Source of the DNA: Escherichia coli
Lineage (GTDB): Bacteria > Pseudomonadota > Gammaproteobacteria > Enterobacterales > Enterobacteriaceae
DNA: 64,000 nucleotides
NCBI RefSeq assembly: GCF_003018255.1
Contig: NZ_CP027440.1
Strand: one strand, 5' to 3'
The notes under the pieces: model-generated
The model's database searches: none
Told to the model about the DNA's origin: nothing
Seen by the model: only the letters and a program-made list of their open reading frames with translations
Part shown: one piece after another, positions 10,081 to 61,190 of the stretch
How positions within the stretch are numbered: the first letter of the stretch is position 1
Layout: each line of letters opens with the position of its first letter
Program-made: the position numbers and the translations under genes

Positions 10081-10905
10081 TTACTCCAGCGGCATTACCA
10101 GCGGATCGGGATACTGGTATTCAAATCCCAGTTCATTACAAATCCGACTGCCATCAATAATCTTACCTTTGCCGCTGTCCAGACTATTTCTGAACTGCGG
10201 AGGTTCCAGCCCCAGTAAACGGGCCATCTGCGGATAGAAAACATTACGCGCAGGGTGAGCTGGCGCACATATATTATAGATGTGTCCGCCTTTAGGTGCC
10301 TGTAACAACAGAGTGATAGCACCAATAACATCTTCTAAATGGACTAAATTAACACCATGTTCACCATCAGGGGCGGTTTTTCCGGCAAAGAAGCGTCCGG
10401 GATGACGTCCCGGTCCGACCAGCCCCGCAAGACGCAGAATATCGACCGAAGTACCGGGTAAATTGTGCAGCCAGTCTTCGAGTTCTTCTAATACTCGTCC
10501 ACTGTTGGTCACCGGATTACGCGGGGTGGTTTCTTTCACCGTGCCTTGCGCGTCGCCATAGACAGATGTTGAGCTGGTAAAAATAATTCGGGGAATACGA
10601 TGGGCCAGCGCGCTATCCACTAACTCTTGTACCGCTTGTAAATAGAACTCATCGCCGGGGCCGCTACGACGTGCCGGAAGCGTAATGACCAGCGCGTCGG
10701 CATCCATCAGGGCATCCAGATCGTCAGAATCGCAAACTAACTCAGGCTCCATGCGAAGCAGATAGCTATCAATGCCACTCATTCGGGCCGCTTCGACACC
10801 ATCTTGTGTGGTTTTACTCCCGGTGACTTGCCAGCCTCGCGCTGAAAGTGACATCGCCAGCGGCATGCCTAACCACCCTAACCCGACAATTGCGACCTTT
10901 TTCAT
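10081..10905 (-). CDS. yeeZ: NAD(P)-binding epimerase/dehydratase-like protein YeeZ
   Basis: 274 aa ORF, Rossmann motif VAIVGLGWLG; synteny upstream of hisL. Confidence 0.85.
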   Translation of the reverse strand: MKKVAIVGLGWLGMPLAMSLSARGWQVTGSKTTQDGVEAARMSGIDSYLLRMEPELVCDSDDLDALMDADALVITLPARRSGPGDEFYLQAVQELVDSALAHRIPRIIFTSSTSVYGDAQGTVKETTPRNPVTNSGRVLEELEDWLHNLPGTSVDILRLAGLVGPGRHPGRFFAGKTAPDGEHGVNLVHLEDVIGAITLLLQAPKGGHIYNICAPAHPARNVFYPQMARLLGLEPPQFRNSLDSGKGKIIDGSRICNELGFEYQYPDPLVMPLE

Positions 10906-11009
10906 CCGTTATCTCCTGATACACCTTAGATCTATAAGGCTACGCTAGCGTATCAAAACTGACAATTCATTCTATGAATGAAATCGAAACGGTTAGCAAA
11001 TATACCATT

Positions 11010-11109
11010 GCCTGATGCGCTCCGCTTATCAGCCCTACAAAAACATCAATATATTGAATTTAGGCAACATTTGTAGACCTGATAAGGCATTCACGCCGCA
11101 TCCGGCAGG
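11010..11109. repeat. REP pair (BIME-like) in the yeeZ-hisL intergenic region
   Basis: Seen in sequence: gcctgatgcgctccgcttatcagccctaca ... tgtagacctgataaggcattcacgccgcatccggcagg, the canonical E. coli REP palindromic units in inverted orientation. Confidence 0.6.
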
Positions 11110-11329
11110 AACAAAGCCCACTTTAGTTACAGAACACAATGTTCTTGAGGATTTAATGACATATTTTCACGATTACTTTTTTAACCTAGTCACTCTTAGC
11201 CCCTCCTTACCCCGCTCATTCATTAAACAAATCCATCGCCATAAAATATATAAAAAAGCCCTTGCTTTCTAACGTGAAAGTGGTTTAGGTTAAAAGACAT
11301 CAGTTGAATAAACATTCACAGAGACTTTT

Positions 11330-11380
11330 ATGACACGCGTTCAATTTAAACACCACCATCATCACCATCATCCTGACTAG
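11330..11380 (+). CDS. hisL: his operon leader peptide
   Basis: Seen in sequence: ATG ACA CGC GTT CAA TTT AAA followed by seven consecutive His codons, CCT GAC TAG (MTRVQFKHHHHHHHPD). Confidence 0.95.
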   Translation: MTRVQFKHHHHHHHPD

Positions 11381-11440
11381 TCTTTCAGGCGATGTGTGCT
11401 GGAAGACATTCAGATCTTCCAGTGGTGCATGAACGCATGA

Positions 11441-56349: not shown

Positions 56350-56527
56350 TGTTTATTTATCACTTTGGCAGAGTAATTATCCTGTGCACTATTAATAGCA
56401 ATGTCGCCATGCACATTTACCTTGCAGTTAATTGAATAAAAATTTAACTGGCATCAGTCCTAAAAAAATTGATTTCATCCGCAGGCTATTGACAGAATAA
56501 TTCAGACTGGTCTTTCAGGCATCCAGA

Positions 56528-56566
56528 CACGCTACCGCCCCTGGCTTTTTAGCTACCAATACACTG
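56528..56566 (-). promoter_or_regulatory. JUMPstart/ops element in the wza 5' leader
   Basis: Seen in sequence: minus strand reads cagtgtattggtagctaaaaagccaggGGCGGTAGCGTG, a 39-bp JUMPstart with exact ops 12-mer, about 180 bp upstream of wza. Confidence 0.8.
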
Positions 56567-57007
56567 ATTTAGCTTAATTTTTAAAACCCTCTCAACATAC
56601 AGTCGTTGATGAGAAAGGGTTATTGCGGAAATTAACTTCCGAATATAAGGTGACATTATGGTAATTGAATATTGGCTCTCCAATAATGCAGGAGGAAGTG
56701 TTACAGCTAACGGAATAGCAGGCAAGGTAACAATTCGGCAATTGGCTATTTTTAAGAATTATATTAAGTGTCATTCAATATGGTTTTTAGGAGTTTCTTT
56801 AGGTTGACAATATTTAATATAGTGTCTCCACATGCGATATTTCTTAAATAATGTTTTATTATTACCACTTTTAATTCAGGGATAATGTGAGGTTATAAAC
56901 CTCAAATAATATGAGATAAATAGTGCTGCAACATTGCATTTTTGCCCCGATTTATCCATGATCGAATTGTGACATTTGTCATACAACGAATAGGTTTTGT
57001 ACTTACT

Positions 57008-58591
57008 ATGGAATGGATTGCCGATCCGTCTATCTGGGCCGGGTTAATCACGCTGATTGTGATCGAACTGGTCCTCGGCATTGATAACCTGGTCTTTATT
57101 GCCATCCTCGCCGAAAAACTACCGCCGAAGCAGCGCGACCGCGCACGGGTTACCGGGCTGTTGCTGGCGATGTTAATGCGCCTGTTACTGCTGGCGTCAA
57201 TCTCCTGGCTGGTCACCCTGACTCAACCGCTGTTCAGCTTCCGCTCGTTTACCTTTAGCGCCCGCGACTTAATCATGCTGTTTGGTGGTTTCTTCCTGTT
57301 GTTCAAAGCCACGATGGAGCTGAACGAACGGCTGGAAGGGAAAGACAGCAATAACCCCACCCAACGCAAAGGTGCGAAGTTCTGGGGGGTGGTGACACAA
57401 ATTGTGGTACTGGACGCCATCTTCTCACTCGACTCGGTGATTACCGCCGTCGGGATGGTCGACCATTTACTGGTCATGATGGCCGCCGTGGTTATCGCTA
57501 TCAGCCTGATGTTGATGGCCAGCAAGCCATTAACGCAATTTGTTAACAGTCACCCGACCATCGTTATTCTCTGCCTAAGTTTCCTGTTGATGATTGGCTT
57601 TAGCCTGGTGGCGGAAGGTTTCGGCTTCGTCATTCCGAAAGGCTACCTGTACGCTGCCATTGGTTTCTCGGTGATGATCGAGGCGCTCAATCAGTTGGCT
57701 ATCTTTAACCGGCGACGTTTTCTTTCCGCTAATCAGACGCTGCGCCAGCGGACTACCGAAGCGGTAATGCGCCTGCTTAGCGGGCAAAAAGAAGATGCGG
57801 AACTGGACGCCGAAACCGCGTCCATGCTGGTGGATCATGGTAACCAGCAGATCTTTAATCCGCAGGAACGGCGGATGATTGAGCGGGTACTTAATCTTAA
57901 CCAGCGTACCGTCAGCAGCATTATGACGTCGCGCCACGATATTGAGCATATCGATCTCAACGCGCCGGAAGAAGAAATCCGCCAGTTACTGGAGCGAAAT
58001 CAGCATACGCGGCTTGTCGTTACTGATGGCGATGACGCAGAAGATTTGCTCGGTGTTGTTCACGTTATCGACCTGTTACAACAGTCTCTGCGCGGCGAAC
58101 CGCTCAACCTGCGGGTGTTGATTCGCCAGCCGCTGGTGTTCCCGGAAACCTTGCCGTTGTTACCTGCCCTGGAGCAGTTCCGTAATGCCCGCACACACTT
58201 TGCTTTTGTGGTGGATGAGTTTGGCTCGGTGGAAGGGATTGTGACATTAAGTGACGTCACTGAAACCATTGCCGGTAACTTACCGAACGAAGTGGAAGAG
58301 ATCGACGCCCGCCATGATATTCAGAAGAATGCGGACGGTTCCTGGACGGCGAATGGTCATATGCCGCTGGAAGATCTGGTGCAATATGTGCCGCTACCGC
58401 TGGATGAGAAACGCGAATATCACACCATTGCCGGGCTGTTGATGGAATATTTGCAACGTATTCCAAAACCTGGCGAAGAAGTTCAGGTGGGGGATTATTT
58501 GCTTAAAACGTTGCAGGTGGAAAGCCATCGCGTGCAGAAGGTGCAGATTATTCCGCTGCATAAGGATGGCGAGATGGAGTACGAGGTGTGA
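57008..58591 (+). CDS. yegH: TerC-family membrane protein with C-terminal CBS/CorC domains (YegH)
   Basis: ORF 56942..58591; start placed at [35 protein letters not shown] (TerC signature); synteny after wza. Confidence 0.88.
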
Positions 58592-58665
58592 TAAAACATC
58601 AAATGCGCAGGTTCAAACTGCGCATTTGATTTATACAAAATTTAGTATAATCTAAGGATGGAGTA

Positions 58666-59004
58666 ATGAGAAAAAAGCTGGCTTTTCTTGATACCAGTCT
58701 TGACGATTTACGCGCATTTCCAGAATCGTCTCGACAGGAAATTGGCTATCAACTCGACAGGATCCAACAAGGGTTAAACCCATACGACTGGAAACCTTTT
58801 TCAACTATCGGCCCTGGTGTGCGAGAGATTCGTACTCGCGATGCTGATGGGATCTATCGCGTCATGTATGTCGCAAAATTTGAAGAAGCGGTTTACGTAT
58901 TGCATTGTTTTCAAAAGAAAACACAGACTACCAGTCAATCGAATATTGATTTAGCCAAACGACGCTATAAAGAACTTGTTCAGGAGCGGAAAAATGAAAA
59001 TTGA
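58666..59004 (+). CDS. Type II toxin, HigB/Gp49-like (RelE/ParE superfamily)
   Basis: 112 aa ORF; C-terminal region YRVMYVAKFEEAVYVLHCFQKKTQTTSQSNIDLAKRRYKEL resembles the conserved Gp49/HigB-like core as I recall it; good SD (aaggatgga) before the ATG; overlaps a downstream HTH gene. Confidence 0.6.
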   Translation: MRKKLAFLDTSLDDLRAFPESSRQEIGYQLDRIQQGLNPYDWKPFSTIGPGVREIRTRDADGIYRVMYVAKFEEAVYVLHCFQKKTQTTSQSNIDLAKRRYKELVQERKNEN

Positions 59005-59284
59005 AACCTTTGATAGTGTGTGGGATGCGGTGAGTGACACCCCTGAACAAGCGGAAAATATGCGGATCCGTGCCGAACTTGTTACGATCATTAATAACTG
59101 GATTGAACAACAAGGGTTTAGCCAGGCTCAGGCAGCGTCTGCTTTAGGGGTCACTCAACCTCGCATATCTGAACTTGCCAGAGGTAAGATCCAGATCTTT
59201 AGTATCGATAAATTGATCACCATGATGGCTCATGCAGGATTGCATATTCAACGTATTGAAGTTCAATATCCACATGCTGCTTAG
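58994..59284 (+). CDS. HTH (XRE/Cro-type) antitoxin, HigA-like
   Basis: ORF 58976..59284; start placed at MKIETFDSVWDAVSD after an SD (caggagcgg); helix-turn-helix region QAQAASALGVTQPRISELARGK; 11-bp overlap with the toxin stop. Confidence 0.6.
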   Translation: MKIETFDSVWDAVSDTPEQAENMRIRAELVTIINNWIEQQGFSQAQAASALGVTQPRISELARGKIQIFSIDKLITMMAHAGLHIQRIEVQYPHAA

Positions 59285-59336
59285 TACTATAAATACAGAT
59301 GGCGACAAATTGACGCCGCCATCTGCATAACTTGTC

Positions 59337-61190
59337 TTACATCTTCTCCAGCAACTTCTTCACATCTTTGCCATTGCGGGAATCTTTATTCCGCTCGGCC
59401 CAGTCATTCAGGCGACGTTTCGCTTCGTCCTGTAGATGTTTGCGCAGTAACTGATCCACTTGCAGGCTGTAATTAAGTTGCTGCCAGTTGCCATAAACCC
59501 GCAGCGGTACTGGCGTTTCTTTGAGGAAATCAATCAGTTTGCTTTCCCCGTTCCAACCGCCAATCACACGAATGTCAAACTGGGTGTCGCAGGTTTGATC
59601 TGCCAGATTCAACATGCCTTCCCCTGTCAGCGCCAGCACAGGCGATTGACCTTGCATGTCGTTTAACGTCACGACGCCATCCTTCAACGTCAAATCGGTG
59701 GTAAAGCGGTCAAGACGCGTTACGTTATCGAAGTTTTCAGCGGCCTTCACATCACCACCATTACGTTCTACCGCTTGCTGAATCATCTGCTGGAAGTTCA
59801 TCCCTTCCATGCGCGTGTCGGTCATTTCGACATGTGCCTGTCCTTGCCAGTTATGGCGGAATGCGTCGGCATCTATGTCAGCACCGGAGAAATCACCAGC
59901 CAGTGACATCTTTCCGGTCAACGAAATCGGATAGTTAAACGCCTTCAGAATGGTGCCAATCTCAACGTTTTCCAGCCGTGGCTGGAAGTTTATTCGCGGA
60001 TTTATTGATGTCGCGTCCAGCGTGCCCGGCAGTGAAACCTGTCCACCGTTAAGTTTGCCCTGCAGTTGAGTAATTTCCAGCAGACCCGACTTGTTGGTCA
60101 TTTGCGTGGCAACATCTGTAAAATTCATTCCGCGCCAGCGCACGTTACTGGCCTGCAACAAAATATCAGCCGTAAAGCCTTGCAGTCCCTGATAGGCCGG
60201 TTCATCAATACGCGAAGAAATGACCGGGCGCGGCAACGTGGATTGGCTCTGCCCCTGCTGCGCGGCACCGTTTTCACCGTTCGCTGTTTCTTTAAGCGGG
60301 ATGAGGTTGTCAAGATTCAGTTGCGGGAATTGCAGCCTCAGCTGCCATTCCGGTTTCTCTGTCAGCGTGACCTGTGCTTGCCCGCTCAGCGTACTGTCAT
60401 TGGCGGTCAAGCTGATTTGGTTAAATGAAAGGCGTTTATGTGACTCCTGCCACTGGGCCTGGAAACTCCCCTGCCCCTGAATACCTTGTTTTGGTAAATC
60501 TGCACCCTGCAACTGCCAGTTAACTTGTTCAATAGCCGCCGTTAAATCATGCGGATAATCAGAAGCATCTACCGTACCGTTAAGGGATATCGTGAGATCG
60601 CGCTGATCGCGATTAACCCGCCCGGAGAACTCAAATGAACCACGATGTTGGGGATCTTGTTCCATTTGCAGGCGAATATTGCGGATTGTCACCTGCTCGT
60701 CATCTTCATGCTGGAACACCAGCACGCTGTCCGCCACCTTAAGACTGGATATATCAAACGACCATCCGCGATCGTCTGACAGATCCGGCAAGGTATTGTC
60801 GCGCGGTGCAACCGGAGCGTCTTCACTGCGCACCGCTTCCGTCTGCGGCGTCAGTTGGATCACTGCCCCTTTTAGCATCACCTGCTTAACGCTCAGTTGA
60901 TGACTCAGCAGTGGTAAAAGCGCCACGTCCAGACGCATGTTGTCTGCGCGAACCAGTGGCTGGCTCGCGCCCTGGGCAGTGAGAGACATTCGCCCGGAGA
61001 GGATACTAAGCTGCGGCCAGACGTGCCAACGCAGTGGCCCGTCGAGCTGCAATTGATAACCGCTACGTGCAGCAACTTGCTTGACCATATAGTCGCGGAA
61101 ATCATTCGGATTCACCAGCAACACTAACGCAGATAACCCGGCCACCAGCACGACCAGGAGTATCATCAGCGTCGTCAGAAATCGTCTCAT
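59337..61190 (-). CDS. asmA: Outer membrane assembly protein AsmA
   Basis: 617 aa ORF with N-terminal TM anchor (MRRFLTTLMILLVVLVAGLSALVLL); synteny with dcd and udk. Confidence 0.92.
   Translation of the reverse strand: MRRFLTTLMILLVVLVAGLSALVLLVNPNDFRDYMVKQVAARSGYQLQLDGPLRWHVWPQLSILSGRMSLTAQGASQPLVRADNMRLDVALLPLLSHQLSVKQVMLKGAVIQLTPQTEAVRSEDAPVAPRDNTLPDLSDDRGWSFDISSLKVADSVLVFQHEDDEQVTIRNIRLQMEQDPQHRGSFEFSGRVNRDQRDLTISLNGTVDASDYPHDLTAAIEQVNWQLQGADLPKQGIQGQGSFQAQWQESHKRLSFNQISLTANDSTLSGQAQVTLTEKPEWQLRLQFPQLNLDNLIPLKETANGENGAAQQGQSQSTLPRPVISSRIDEPAYQGLQGFTADILLQASNVRWRGMNFTDVATQMTNKSGLLEITQLQGKLNGGQVSLPGTLDATSINPRINFQPRLENVEIGTILKAFNYPISLTGKMSLAGDFSGADIDADAFRHNWQGQAHVEMTDTRMEGMNFQQMIQQAVERNGGDVKAAENFDNVTRLDRFTTDLTLKDGVVTLNDMQGQSPVLALTGEGMLNLADQTCDTQFDIRVIGGWNGESKLIDFLKETPVPLRVYGNWQQLNYSLQVDQLLRKHLQDEAKRRLNDWAERNKDSRNGKDVKKLLEKM

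Follow-up and report, generated by a model that had tools for sequence, protein, structure and literature searches.

A Tad-Ata type toxin-antitoxin pair as an alternative allele of the yegH-asmA intergenic region of Escherichia coli

The gap between yegH and asmA in a 64-kb stretch of Escherichia coli DNA (contig NZ_CP027440.1; this whole stretch is called the window) is filled by two overlapping genes which, judged by their sequences, are a type II toxin-antitoxin (TA) pair of the Tad-Ata type (COG4679-COG5606; Gp49/HTH_37). The observation goes back to an earlier note made from the letters of the DNA; it was confirmed, and its interpretation was supported, with refinements. The cassette is already known, as both proteins are named in RefSeq and the family is well described. 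From sequence comparisons and structure models it appears likely, with a probability of roughly four in five, that the pair is a chromosomal Tad-Ata operon of foreign origin, which works as outlined in the following and is kept by an asymmetric cost of loss.

A bicistronic mRNA would be transcribed from a promoter whose -10 box sits within a 20-bp palindrome. Its first product, a RelE-fold toxin, would act as a ribosome-dependent mRNA endonuclease which cuts A-site codons and stops translation; the 11-bp overlap of the genes would couple translation of the antitoxin to that of the toxin. The conserved N-terminal strand and short helix of the antitoxin would bind and neutralise the toxin, and its C-terminal XRE HTH domain, as a dimer, would bind the palindrome and repress the operon. 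The cassette, once foreign, would now occupy the yegH-asmA intergenic region as an accessory allele of fixed position, and would persist mainly because loss of the antitoxin is harmful and loss of the toxin is not.

Between yegH (57008-58591, plus strand) and asmA (59337-61190, minus strand), both of which match the identical RefSeq record, the plus strand carries the toxin gene (58666-59004, ATG start, 112 aa, WP_001563602.1; Tad or Gp49-type HigB) and the antitoxin gene (58994-59284, 96 aa, WP_000687872.1; XRE/HTH_37). Toxin-first order and an overlap of 11 bp (58994-59004), both described in the earlier note, were borne out by the ORF list and the sequence. The antitoxin ORF was listed from a TTG at 58976, and the ATG at 58994 was taken as its start, as in RefSeq; the length of 97 aa given originally has to be corrected to 96 aa, 97 codons being reached only when the stop is counted. 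Read from the sequence, AAGGA is located 7 nt 5' of the toxin ATG and GGAG 7 nt 5' of the antitoxin ATG.

The yegH-asmA spacer of K-12 MG1655 is 273 bp long, non-coding and without similarity to the cassette, and K-12-type strains have REP or non-coding DNA in its place. The cassette had also been called inserted. The difference from K-12 holds, but an insertion as such is not established: the two alleles diverge from just past the yegH stop up to the asmA stop, the intergenic region as a whole being an alternative allele, and flanking direct repeats, target duplications or mobility genes were sought around the cassette and not found. An Rfam scan covering positions 58300-59600 was empty even with the threshold relaxed to E<=1. 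TA cassettes alternating with REP or non-coding DNA are likewise known from ccdO157 at folA-apaH and yefM-yoeB at yeeZ-hisL (PMC7167474), although their toxins belong to families unrelated to the Gp49 toxin. The absence of yefM-yoeB upstream of hisL, which had been pointed out for the window, could be verified: the gap of about 425 bp between yeeZ (10081-10905, minus strand) and hisL (about 11331-11381) contains REP-like sequence and neither yefM nor yoeB, both of which are found at this position in many other E. coli genomes.

For assignment to a family the Tad-Ata framework (COG4679-COG5606; PMC2701414, PMC7157771, PMC11980606) was used. Toxin residues 13-102 cover positions 1-90 of the 90 positions of Pfam Gp49 (PF05973) with an i-Evalue of 3e-30, which places the first ORF in a toxin family, and PHROG 2523 was matched at 2e-36; all homologues, which number in the thousands, bear PF05973. 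The second protein matches HTH_37 at 5e-22 and HTH_3 at 5e-7, in agreement with the XRE-type HTH partner proposed before. As in Tad-Ata systems, the toxin gene comes first and the HTH_37 antitoxin gene second, both partners belong to the same Pfam families, gap or overlap is tiny, and the antitoxin is an XRE-type HTH protein of about 96-98 aa. The archetype is that of Paracoccus aminophilus plasmid pAMI2; this system and its homologues from SXT (s045-s044) and N15 (gp49-gp48) are cited as validated stabilising TA systems (PMC2701414, PMC3606827, PMC4489591). Plasmids, ICEs, prophages and Tn3-family transposons often carry members of the family; unlike these, the cassette lies on the chromosome, where its position in the core genome is fixed and genes of mobile elements are missing around it.

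The designation HigB/HigA-like is appropriate insofar as a RelE-fold toxin precedes an HTH protein. Classical HigBA systems (Proteus Rts1, K-12 ygjN-ygjM, V. cholerae) also show the reverse order, a RelE-superfamily toxin and an XRE HTH antitoxin, but their Pfam families (PF09907, PF05015 and PF06296) were not matched by the cassette, and the name "HigBA" fits only loosely. No match of the toxin to Pfam HigB_toxin, HigB-like_toxin or ParE_toxin was obtained even at E<=10. Two NCBIfam profiles scored below their cut-offs, namely TIGR02683 (upstrm_HI1419, RelE/ParE family toxin) with 24 bits versus 62.85 for the toxin, and HigA TIGR02607 with 16.3 bits versus 47.7 for the antitoxin. V. cholerae HigB2 was considered as a Gp49 comparator and dropped, since a 2025 review of RelE/ParE placed it in PF06296 (PMC11980606).

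The AF2 model of the toxin (pLDDT 92.6) contains short strands at residues 4-7 and 42-44, longer ones at 52-58, 64-71 and 75-84, and helices at 11-16, 20-34 and 91-111, the last forming a long C-terminal helix. This RelE-type fold and the Foldseek results agree with the membership in the RelE/ParE superfamily that had been suggested: the best matches were M. tuberculosis HigB1 (7nbu/7awk) and S. pneumoniae HigB (6af4), followed by RelE, HigB2, YafQ and ParE, with probabilities of about 1.0. HigB1 (Rv1955), a TAC toxin whose matched structure is bound to the ribosome, ranked highest (E 4e-4, TM 0.67) and shares both the RelE fold and the long C-terminal helix, but sequence identity is about 20%, and it was found by fold comparison only. 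When the PDB was searched with the toxin sequence or the family profile, only S. pneumoniae HigB was returned, the similarity being weak (E 0.0014 with the family profile) and restricted to the C-terminal half; the two proteins share the motif LHxFxK(K/R)TQKT.

Invariant across the toxin homologues are E54, R56, R65, F82, K84 and Q87. HMMER aligned R65, F82 and K84 with R73, F90 and K92 of S. pneumoniae HigB, which have been equated with R77, F93 and K95 of M. tuberculosis HigB1 and with R61 and R81 of RelE (PMC9098466); E54, R56 and Q87 fit the HigB1 residues E66, R68 and Q98 by spacing, and for the N-terminal half all equivalences are based on spacing and not on an alignment. K58 and N73 of HigB1 could not be aligned with confidence to positions of the toxin. 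The RelE/ParE review assigns ribosome-dependent mRNA degradation and the gene order T/A to the Gp49 family (PMC11980606), and the toxin is predicted to be such a ribosome-dependent mRNA endonuclease. Unlike the mycobacterial TAC system, the locus lacks a gene for a SecB-like chaperone, and its antitoxin of 96 aa has no chaperone-addiction extension. A Gp49-type toxin followed by an HTH antitoxin is also present in S. pneumoniae HigBA (6af3/6af4) and in HigBA2 of an A. baumannii plasmid, which is autorepressed by the antitoxin and by the complex.

In the antitoxin, residues 1-26 are conserved (F-x-S-V-W-D-A-x-x-D-T-P...A-E-N-M) and are followed by the XRE/HTH_37 DNA-binding domain, whose recognition-helix motif V-T-Q-P-R-x-S-x-L is invariant or nearly so among the homologues. 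The protein matched PDB 2a6c at 3e-14; a match to S. pneumoniae 6af3_B was insignificant (E 0.29). When toxin, linker and antitoxin were modelled by AF2 as one fused chain, a pTM of 0.82 was obtained, with pLDDT values of >90 for the N-terminus of the antitoxin. Between the antitoxin gene and that of Sakai there are 6 synonymous differences and no non-synonymous one.

Upstream of the toxin gene, a putative sigma-70 promoter was read from the sequence on the plus strand at 58626-58651, consisting of a -35-like TTGATT (58626-58631) and a perfect -10 box TATAAT (58646-58651), with a short spacer of 14-15 nt. A scan for consensus promoters and terminators reported no plus-strand promoter for the cassette, because its rule demands a spacer of 16-18 nt; it did report one minus-strand promoter-like site, which is within chance expectation, and the hairpin near yegH on the minus strand. 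At homologous loci the promoter consensus is TTGcc-N17-TATAnT, arranged around the same palindrome. An internal promoter for the antitoxin was sought in the window and in the allele of E. coli 042 and not found. The 20-bp palindrome itself (TTATACAAAA/TTTAGTATAA, 58631-58650) overlaps the -10 box and is probably the operator for the HTH antitoxin. Its consensus among related loci is TATACAAAATTTTGTATA. TATAC-N8-GTATA occurs once in the 64-kb window, at the palindrome, versus 0.06 sites expected; 72 of the 81 related loci with enough upstream sequence have the palindrome with at most one mismatch 5' of the toxin gene (0.015 expected per upstream window), and exact ATAC-N8-GTAT was present in 51/79 loci versus 2 sites elsewhere in 559 kb. 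In the literature searched, no description of a family-wide conserved operator was found.

Two stem-loops flank the operon. The first, at 58598-58630 on the plus strand, directly after the yegH stop (16-nt arms, 94% complementary; -20.6 kcal/mol, z = -8.6), is specific to the cassette allele, being absent from the K-12 allele, and is probably a yegH terminator or an insulator. The second, at 59293-59328 between the convergent stops of antitoxin and asmA genes, also belongs to the cassette allele and is retained in E. coli 042; with folding energies of -24.7 kcal/mol (minus strand, z = -6.4) and -15.5 kcal/mol (plus strand, z = -3.9), it is probably a shared terminator which is stronger on the asmA strand.

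Comparison of the yegH-asmA junction across 5426 complete E. coli genomes, which the earlier note had suggested, showed that 792, or about one in seven, have the promoter together with the 5' half of the toxin gene at this site. Orthologues are present in O157:H7 Sakai (ECs_2869/ECs_2870), UTI89, derivatives of E. coli W and ATCC 11775; RefSeq has the toxin annotated as type II TA in some 800 genomes. The searchable literature contained no mention of ECs2868, ECs2869, ECs2870, Z3229 or Z3230, nor did it yield an experiment with the orthologue. In 61 of the 792 genomes, which form a band of 80-90% identity with matches of 198 bp rather than 221 bp, the toxin gene is frameshifted by a 23-bp deletion. 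A pair of direct repeats (ATCGTCTCGACAGGA and ATCAACTCGACAGGA, 23 bp apart) lies inside the toxin gene at 58725-58762, and in strain Ec-050-T20-MAC, where the gene is annotated "frameshifted", the deletion runs exactly between them; deletion between these repeats gives the frameshifted allele. A 5'-truncated toxin gene was found in a further 116 genomes. Full-length antitoxin is kept in 908 genomes, among them all 177 with a degenerate toxin allele (61 + 116), and the pair seems to be intact in about 731. E. coli 042 carries a hybrid yegH-asmA allele, which makes both gain and loss of the cassette at this site possible. A scan of species-representative genomes returned no other Escherichia species, the best match being Pantoea at 70%.

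In 80 of 80 related loci examined, from other species and many phyla, an antitoxin homologue lies directly 3' of the toxin homologue; homologues are present in 640 plasmid records and in prophages, and gp49 of phage N15 has 33% identity to the toxin (1e-8). The closest relatives outside E. coli, with toxin identities of 79-81%, are on Salmonella conjugative or IncFII-type contigs, and two Salmonella plasmid homologues have the identical palindrome 20-mer. The GC content of the cassette is 0.42, versus 0.53 in the flanking genes. From GC content, Salmonella relatives and plasmid homologues we infer a foreign, plasmid-like origin as part of the best explanation. Matches of at least 95% identity in E. 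coli "plasmid" records were considered as evidence for mobility and rejected; two of three were checked, and both had the chromosomal context yegH/asmA/dcd/udk.

The shared operator sequence and the homologues in prophages could also fit immunity, and not selfish maintenance, as the main role. Related plasmid Tad-Ata systems with the same operator would then be neutralised or repressed by the antitoxin from the chromosome, in the manner of the anti-addiction known from chromosomal TAs of other kinds (PMC7167474), or phage infection would set off the toxin; intact or antitoxin-only alleles would be kept for this reason. Persistence of the latter in 177 genomes is in accordance with such a role, but recent neutral decay predicts retention of the antitoxin equally well; PADLOC gave nothing significant (NsnC at 1.6e-3 for the toxin and PDC-M64C at 6e-5 for the antitoxin, candidate families only), and no defence genes adjoin the cassette. 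We regard anti-plasmid or anti-phage immunity as the main role as rather unlikely.

Slightly less probable still would be a domesticated or attenuated remnant, in which the Gp49 protein has lost any harmful RNase activity and a self-regulated HTH protein is accompanied by an inconsequential small partner. Non-toxic Gp49 members exist, namely M. tuberculosis HigB2 and HigB3 (PMC9098466); the toxin of the window has N93 instead of an aspartate that is near-invariant in the family and present in O157, and T88 where HigB1 has K99; moreover, the toxin was lost repeatedly in E. coli at no obvious cost. However, all six residues proposed for catalysis or positioning are invariant, conservation of the toxin across phylogroups amounts to 98-100%, and decay is one-sided, as the antitoxin survives in every toxin-defective allele. 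The sole antitoxin-frameshift allele seen also carries a toxin W42C exchange at an invariant residue; it stems from an odd "plasmid" record with chromosomal genes, which may be of low quality.

That the toxin poisons gyrase like ParE and is not an mRNase seems very improbable. Both activities share one fold, and ParE2 chains appeared at Foldseek rank 4 (E 8.6e-4), but the top matches were Gp49-type HigB toxins, Pfam ParE_toxin was not matched, the RelE/HigB-type catalytic positions are conserved, and the long basic C-terminal helix resembles that of M. tuberculosis HigB1, which contacts P-site tRNA. That the two ORFs are open by chance in non-coding DNA, for which only their small size could be adduced, is refuted by the Gp49 and HTH_37 profile matches, the thousands of homologues and the invariable pairing of both genes.

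The Tad-Ata operon at yegH-asmA on its own is of little weight, being an annotated family member at a spacer polymorphic for TA genes and REP sequences. Strains in common use carry the orthologue, for which a small annotation gap exists. The natural allelic series (about 731 apparently intact, 61 frameshifted, 116 5'-truncated and one antitoxin-frameshifted) would be of use for studies on the decay of chromosomal TA systems. The putative operator conserved throughout the family is easily testable; if the cassette were indeed kept for immunity, which is rather unlikely, a near-universal TATACAAAATTTTGTATA operator together with an invariant recognition helix would amount to a cross-reacting regulatory network spanning phyla.

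Two overlapping genes occupy the spacer between yegH and asmA, and by their domain content the cassette is a member of the Tad-Ata family, i.e., a Gp49 toxin with an HTH_37 antitoxin. As the earlier note had claimed, a first ORF of 112 aa is present in the ORF list (58666–59004, plus strand) and precedes the antitoxin ORF (58994–59284, plus strand), with an overlap of 11 bp. The second product had been given as 97 aa; the ORF exists, and the length was off by one, because the 97 codons include the stop (96 aa; the ATG was read from the sequence, and RefSeq has the same start). The toxin ATG is preceded by AAGGA at 7 nt and the antitoxin ATG by GGAG at 7 nt, which, with the overlap, would be compatible with translational coupling. 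A mini-ORF of three codons, ATG GAG TAA (58659–58668), whose stop overlaps the toxin start (TAATG), is probably incidental, since it is not kept in Salmonella or Pantoea homologues. An identical stretch was found in E. coli JNE112863, with the RefSeq gene order yegH, toxin, antitoxin, convergent asmA. The cassette is already known: RefSeq names precisely these two proteins, WP_001563602.1 ("type II toxin-antitoxin system RelE/ParE family toxin") and WP_000687872.1 ("helix-turn-helix domain-containing protein"), and descriptions of the family go back to 2007.

In the literature, Tad-Ata, found on the Paracoccus plasmid pAMI2, consists of a Gp49/COG4679 toxin and a COG5606/HTH_37 antitoxin, with the toxin gene first; homologues from SXT and phage N15 were validated (PMC2701414, PMC3606827, PMC4489591). 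The gp49 protein of phage N15 and the window's toxin are 33% identical (E 1e-8). The same pair type is borne by Tn3-family transposons (PMC7157771), and in a 2025 survey the Gp49 family is listed with ribosome-dependent mRNA degradation and T/A gene order (PMC11980606). The label "HigBA" holds in the loose sense applied to M. tuberculosis, S. pneumoniae and A. baumannii, and only loosely, because the pairing is that of Tad-Ata; in the profile search neither protein matched the classical HigB and HigA profiles. A protein search yielded 7683 relatives, about 60% identical across alpha-, beta- and gamma-proteobacteria, Acidobacteria and one Actinobacterium, and 57% in M. abscessus prophages; 640 plasmid records contain relatives. 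The nearest beyond E. coli/Shigella (79–81%) come from Salmonella contigs that also carry Tra genes or an IncFII RepA, and a scan of species representatives gave no close homologue in other Escherichia species. When one genome per species was scanned, 418 loci were found; in all 80 retrieved, the toxin homologue is directly followed by the antitoxin homologue.

The claimed difference from K-12 was confirmed: the MG1655 spacer consists of 273 bp of unrelated non-coding DNA, and the two alleles part straight after the yegH stop and reunite exactly at the asmA stop. Comparison of this junction across E. coli showed either the cassette or alleles built of a non-coding element and a REP unit, with spacers of 67 bp in M-17, 292 bp in O145 and 451 bp in HS. 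The word "inserted" is not borne out: the cassette fills the yegH-asmA gap, which may reflect either gain or loss. In a spacer comparison and a repeat search of the window, neither a target duplication nor an integrase or IS element was found at the cassette, and the whole spacer is an alternative allele. The pattern is like that of ccdO157 at folA-apaH, where a TA cassette alternates with REP sequences (PMC7167474). The GC content of the cassette (42% vs 53% in yegH and asmA), together with the plasmid relatives, points to a foreign origin. In the HS/042-type spacer a sub-threshold match to Rfam TwoAYGGAY was noted (positions 913–1056 of L008, the E. coli 042 locus; same sequence in HS), at 31.5 bits (gathering score 43; E 0.004 for 461 bp searched), with two AUGGAY hairpin loops; most of this segment is missing from K-12, and the REP unit beside it gave a weak naRNA4 match.

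The absence of yefM-yoeB upstream of hisL was likewise borne out, REP-like sequence being found instead between yeeZ and hisL (10905–11330), e.g., gcctgatgcgctccgcttatcagccctaca at about 11011–11040 and gtagacctgataaggcattcacgccgcatccggcagg at about 11075–11111. This allele is common to O157:H7 strains; many other E. coli have yoeB and yefM here. Elsewhere in the window, a low-GC stretch (32–38%) was seen between wza and yegH (56500–57100), upstream of divergently oriented genes.

The antitoxin matched HTH_37 (PF13744, 5e-22), HTH_3 and HTH_31, in agreement with the proposed XRE-type partner; among solved structures, the nearest to it is 2a6c, an HTH protein from structural genomics (3e-14). 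In the family alignment a putative recognition helix, V-T-Q-P-R-x-S-x-L (residues 53–61), is invariant or nearly so, and an N-terminal motif is conserved (F6, D11, A12, A20, N22, R26). A toxin-(GGGGS)6-antitoxin fusion was modelled with a paired alignment (pTM 0.82). The first 18 antitoxin residues form a strand and a short helix (pLDDT >90), and the model would be compatible with the N-terminus as the neutralising segment.

A palindrome with the consensus TATACAAAATTTTGTATA precedes the toxin gene and is directly seen to be conserved in Gp49-HTH_37 loci of several phyla (comparison loci L003, L006, with a Salmonella homologue, and L012–L091). Exact ATAC-N8-GTAT occurs at most 100 nt upstream of the toxin in 51 of 79 loci, and in 2 other places in the 559 kb of these loci; with at most one mismatch allowed, 72 of 81 loci have the palindrome, vs 0.015 expected per upstream window. 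Its right half runs into a TATAnT -10 box in the consensus, with a TTGcc -35 at 17 nt upstream. An inverted-repeat search located the window's copy, TTATACAAAATTTAGTATAA, at 58631–58650, where it is unique in 64 kb (0.06 sites expected) and is overlapped by a perfect -10 box, TATAAT (58646–58651). A consensus promoter scan missed this candidate promoter because the -35-like TTGATT is just 14 nt from the -10. The identical 20-mer was found in both Salmonella plasmid homologues. Considered with the (near-)invariant recognition helix, the palindrome is a candidate operator; binding, repression and the promoter itself we infer.

Among 5426 complete E. coli genomes, 908 have the full-length antitoxin gene (at least 95% identity), and 792 the promoter and toxin 5' half; in one genome the match is confined to the final 52 bp of the antitoxin gene. 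An orthologue is present in about 13–17%. Since 61 of the 792 carry a 23-bp deletion in the toxin, about 731 genomes look intact. All copies are sited at yegH-asmA, with which the two matches listed as on plasmids are consistent; PLSDB held three high-identity E. coli plasmid records, and both of those inspected contain chromosomal yegH/asmA/dcd/udk segments. Among the carriers are O157:H7 Sakai, where the genes are annotated "toxin RelE" (ECs_2869) and "transcriptional regulator" (ECs_2870), as well as UTI89, LY180, KO11FL and ATCC 11775; these strains span several phylogroups. The toxin differs from that of Sakai solely by N93D, and the antitoxin gene by 6 synonymous and 0 non-synonymous codons. 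The cassette looks like a mosaic, which suggests recombination within it: over 58620–58840, where the promoter and the 5' half of the toxin gene lie, the window matches O157:H7 strains at 100%, whereas its antitoxin gene matches that of E. coli 042 at 100% and that of O157:H7 at only 97.6%.

The 23-bp deletion lies between direct repeats (58725–58739 and 58748–58762) and shifts the toxin frame at about codon 22 (427–742 of L092, the Ec-050-T20-MAC locus, matching window 58725–58762); the single example has D15A and T16P within the conserved N-terminal motif of the antitoxin. In the 042 type (116 of 5426 genomes), the promoter and toxin 5' part are replaced by the non-coding element of the HS and K-12 spacers, so that the toxin is truncated near codon 57 (L008, 1203–1370). 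This hybrid could stem from decay of an ancestral cassette or, equally, two alleles present side by side in the species could have undergone illegitimate recombination. The 23-bp deletion and the 042-type truncation are independent toxin-killing alleles, and the decay is directly seen to be one-sided, the antitoxin being kept in 177 of 177 toxin-defective alleles. A broken antitoxin was seen in one allele only, that of NDM2 (L094, NZ_CP083887.1, 2335–3010; a 43-kb "plasmid unnamed3" of chromosomal genes, of uncertain quality). There, a 5-bp ACTCA duplication shifts the frame inside the HTH, and a toxin tryptophan that is invariant in the family is changed (W42C); anecdotally, this is what an active toxin would predict. 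Retention of the antitoxin and an operator shared with plasmid homologues would also fit phage defence or anti-addiction as the primary role, a reading that appears unlikely and would be compatible with the toxin-antitoxin operon as the main explanation.

The toxin matched Pfam Gp49 (PF05973) over the whole model (positions 1–90 of 90, 3e-30) and PHROG 2523 at 2e-36; the Pfam profiles HigB_toxin, HigB-like_toxin and ParE_toxin gave no match even at E ≤ 10. Its AlphaFold model (26 homologues, confident at pLDDT 92.6) has N-terminal helices, a beta-sheet and a long C-terminal helix, and the RelE/ParE-superfamily, Gp49-like assignment of the earlier note thus stands. The top Foldseek PDB match was the M. 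tuberculosis TAC toxin HigB1 (7nbu/7awk, including a ribosome-bound structure; E 4e-4, TM 0.67), followed by S. pneumoniae HigB and then ParE2, RelE, V. cholerae HigB2 and YafQ. By HMMER, residues 65–106 align to S. pneumoniae HigB via R-x16-F-x-K-(K/R)-T-Q-x-T, so that R65, F82 and K84 equal its R73, F90 and K92 (corrected for the 20-residue offset of the chain), which in turn correspond to R77, F93 and K95 of M. tuberculosis HigB1 and R61/R81 of RelE (PMC9098466). By spacing, E54 and R56 (11 and 9 residues before R65) were equated with E66 and R68 before R77, and Q87 (K84 + 3) with Q98 (K95 + 3). All six residues are invariant in the toxin family alignments; their conservation, like family and fold, is seen directly, whereas toxicity and cleavage we infer. 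The equivalent of K99 is T88, with K in many homologues; those of K58 and N73 had no confident assignment. Codon 93 (58942–58944) is AAT (N93) in the window, at the start of the C-terminal helix; Sakai, 042 and Ec-050 have D (GAT), as do at least 90% of the family. Since some Gp49 proteins are non-toxic and the window's allele has N93 and T88, it may be an attenuated, non-toxic remnant, a reading that appears unlikely. A ParE-like gyrase poison, the ParE2 fold match notwithstanding, is very improbable. That both are chance ORFs is refuted, the conserved pairing being seen directly.

What is left are small gaps and no surprises: the searchable literature yielded no experimental paper on the window's orthologue, and the literature searched no description of a family-wide operator. 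With a probability of about 0.8, the cassette is an autoregulated bicistronic operon from which both proteins would be produced; the toxin would act as a ribosome-dependent mRNase, and the antitoxin would neutralise it by its N-terminus and repress the operon promoter through the palindrome.
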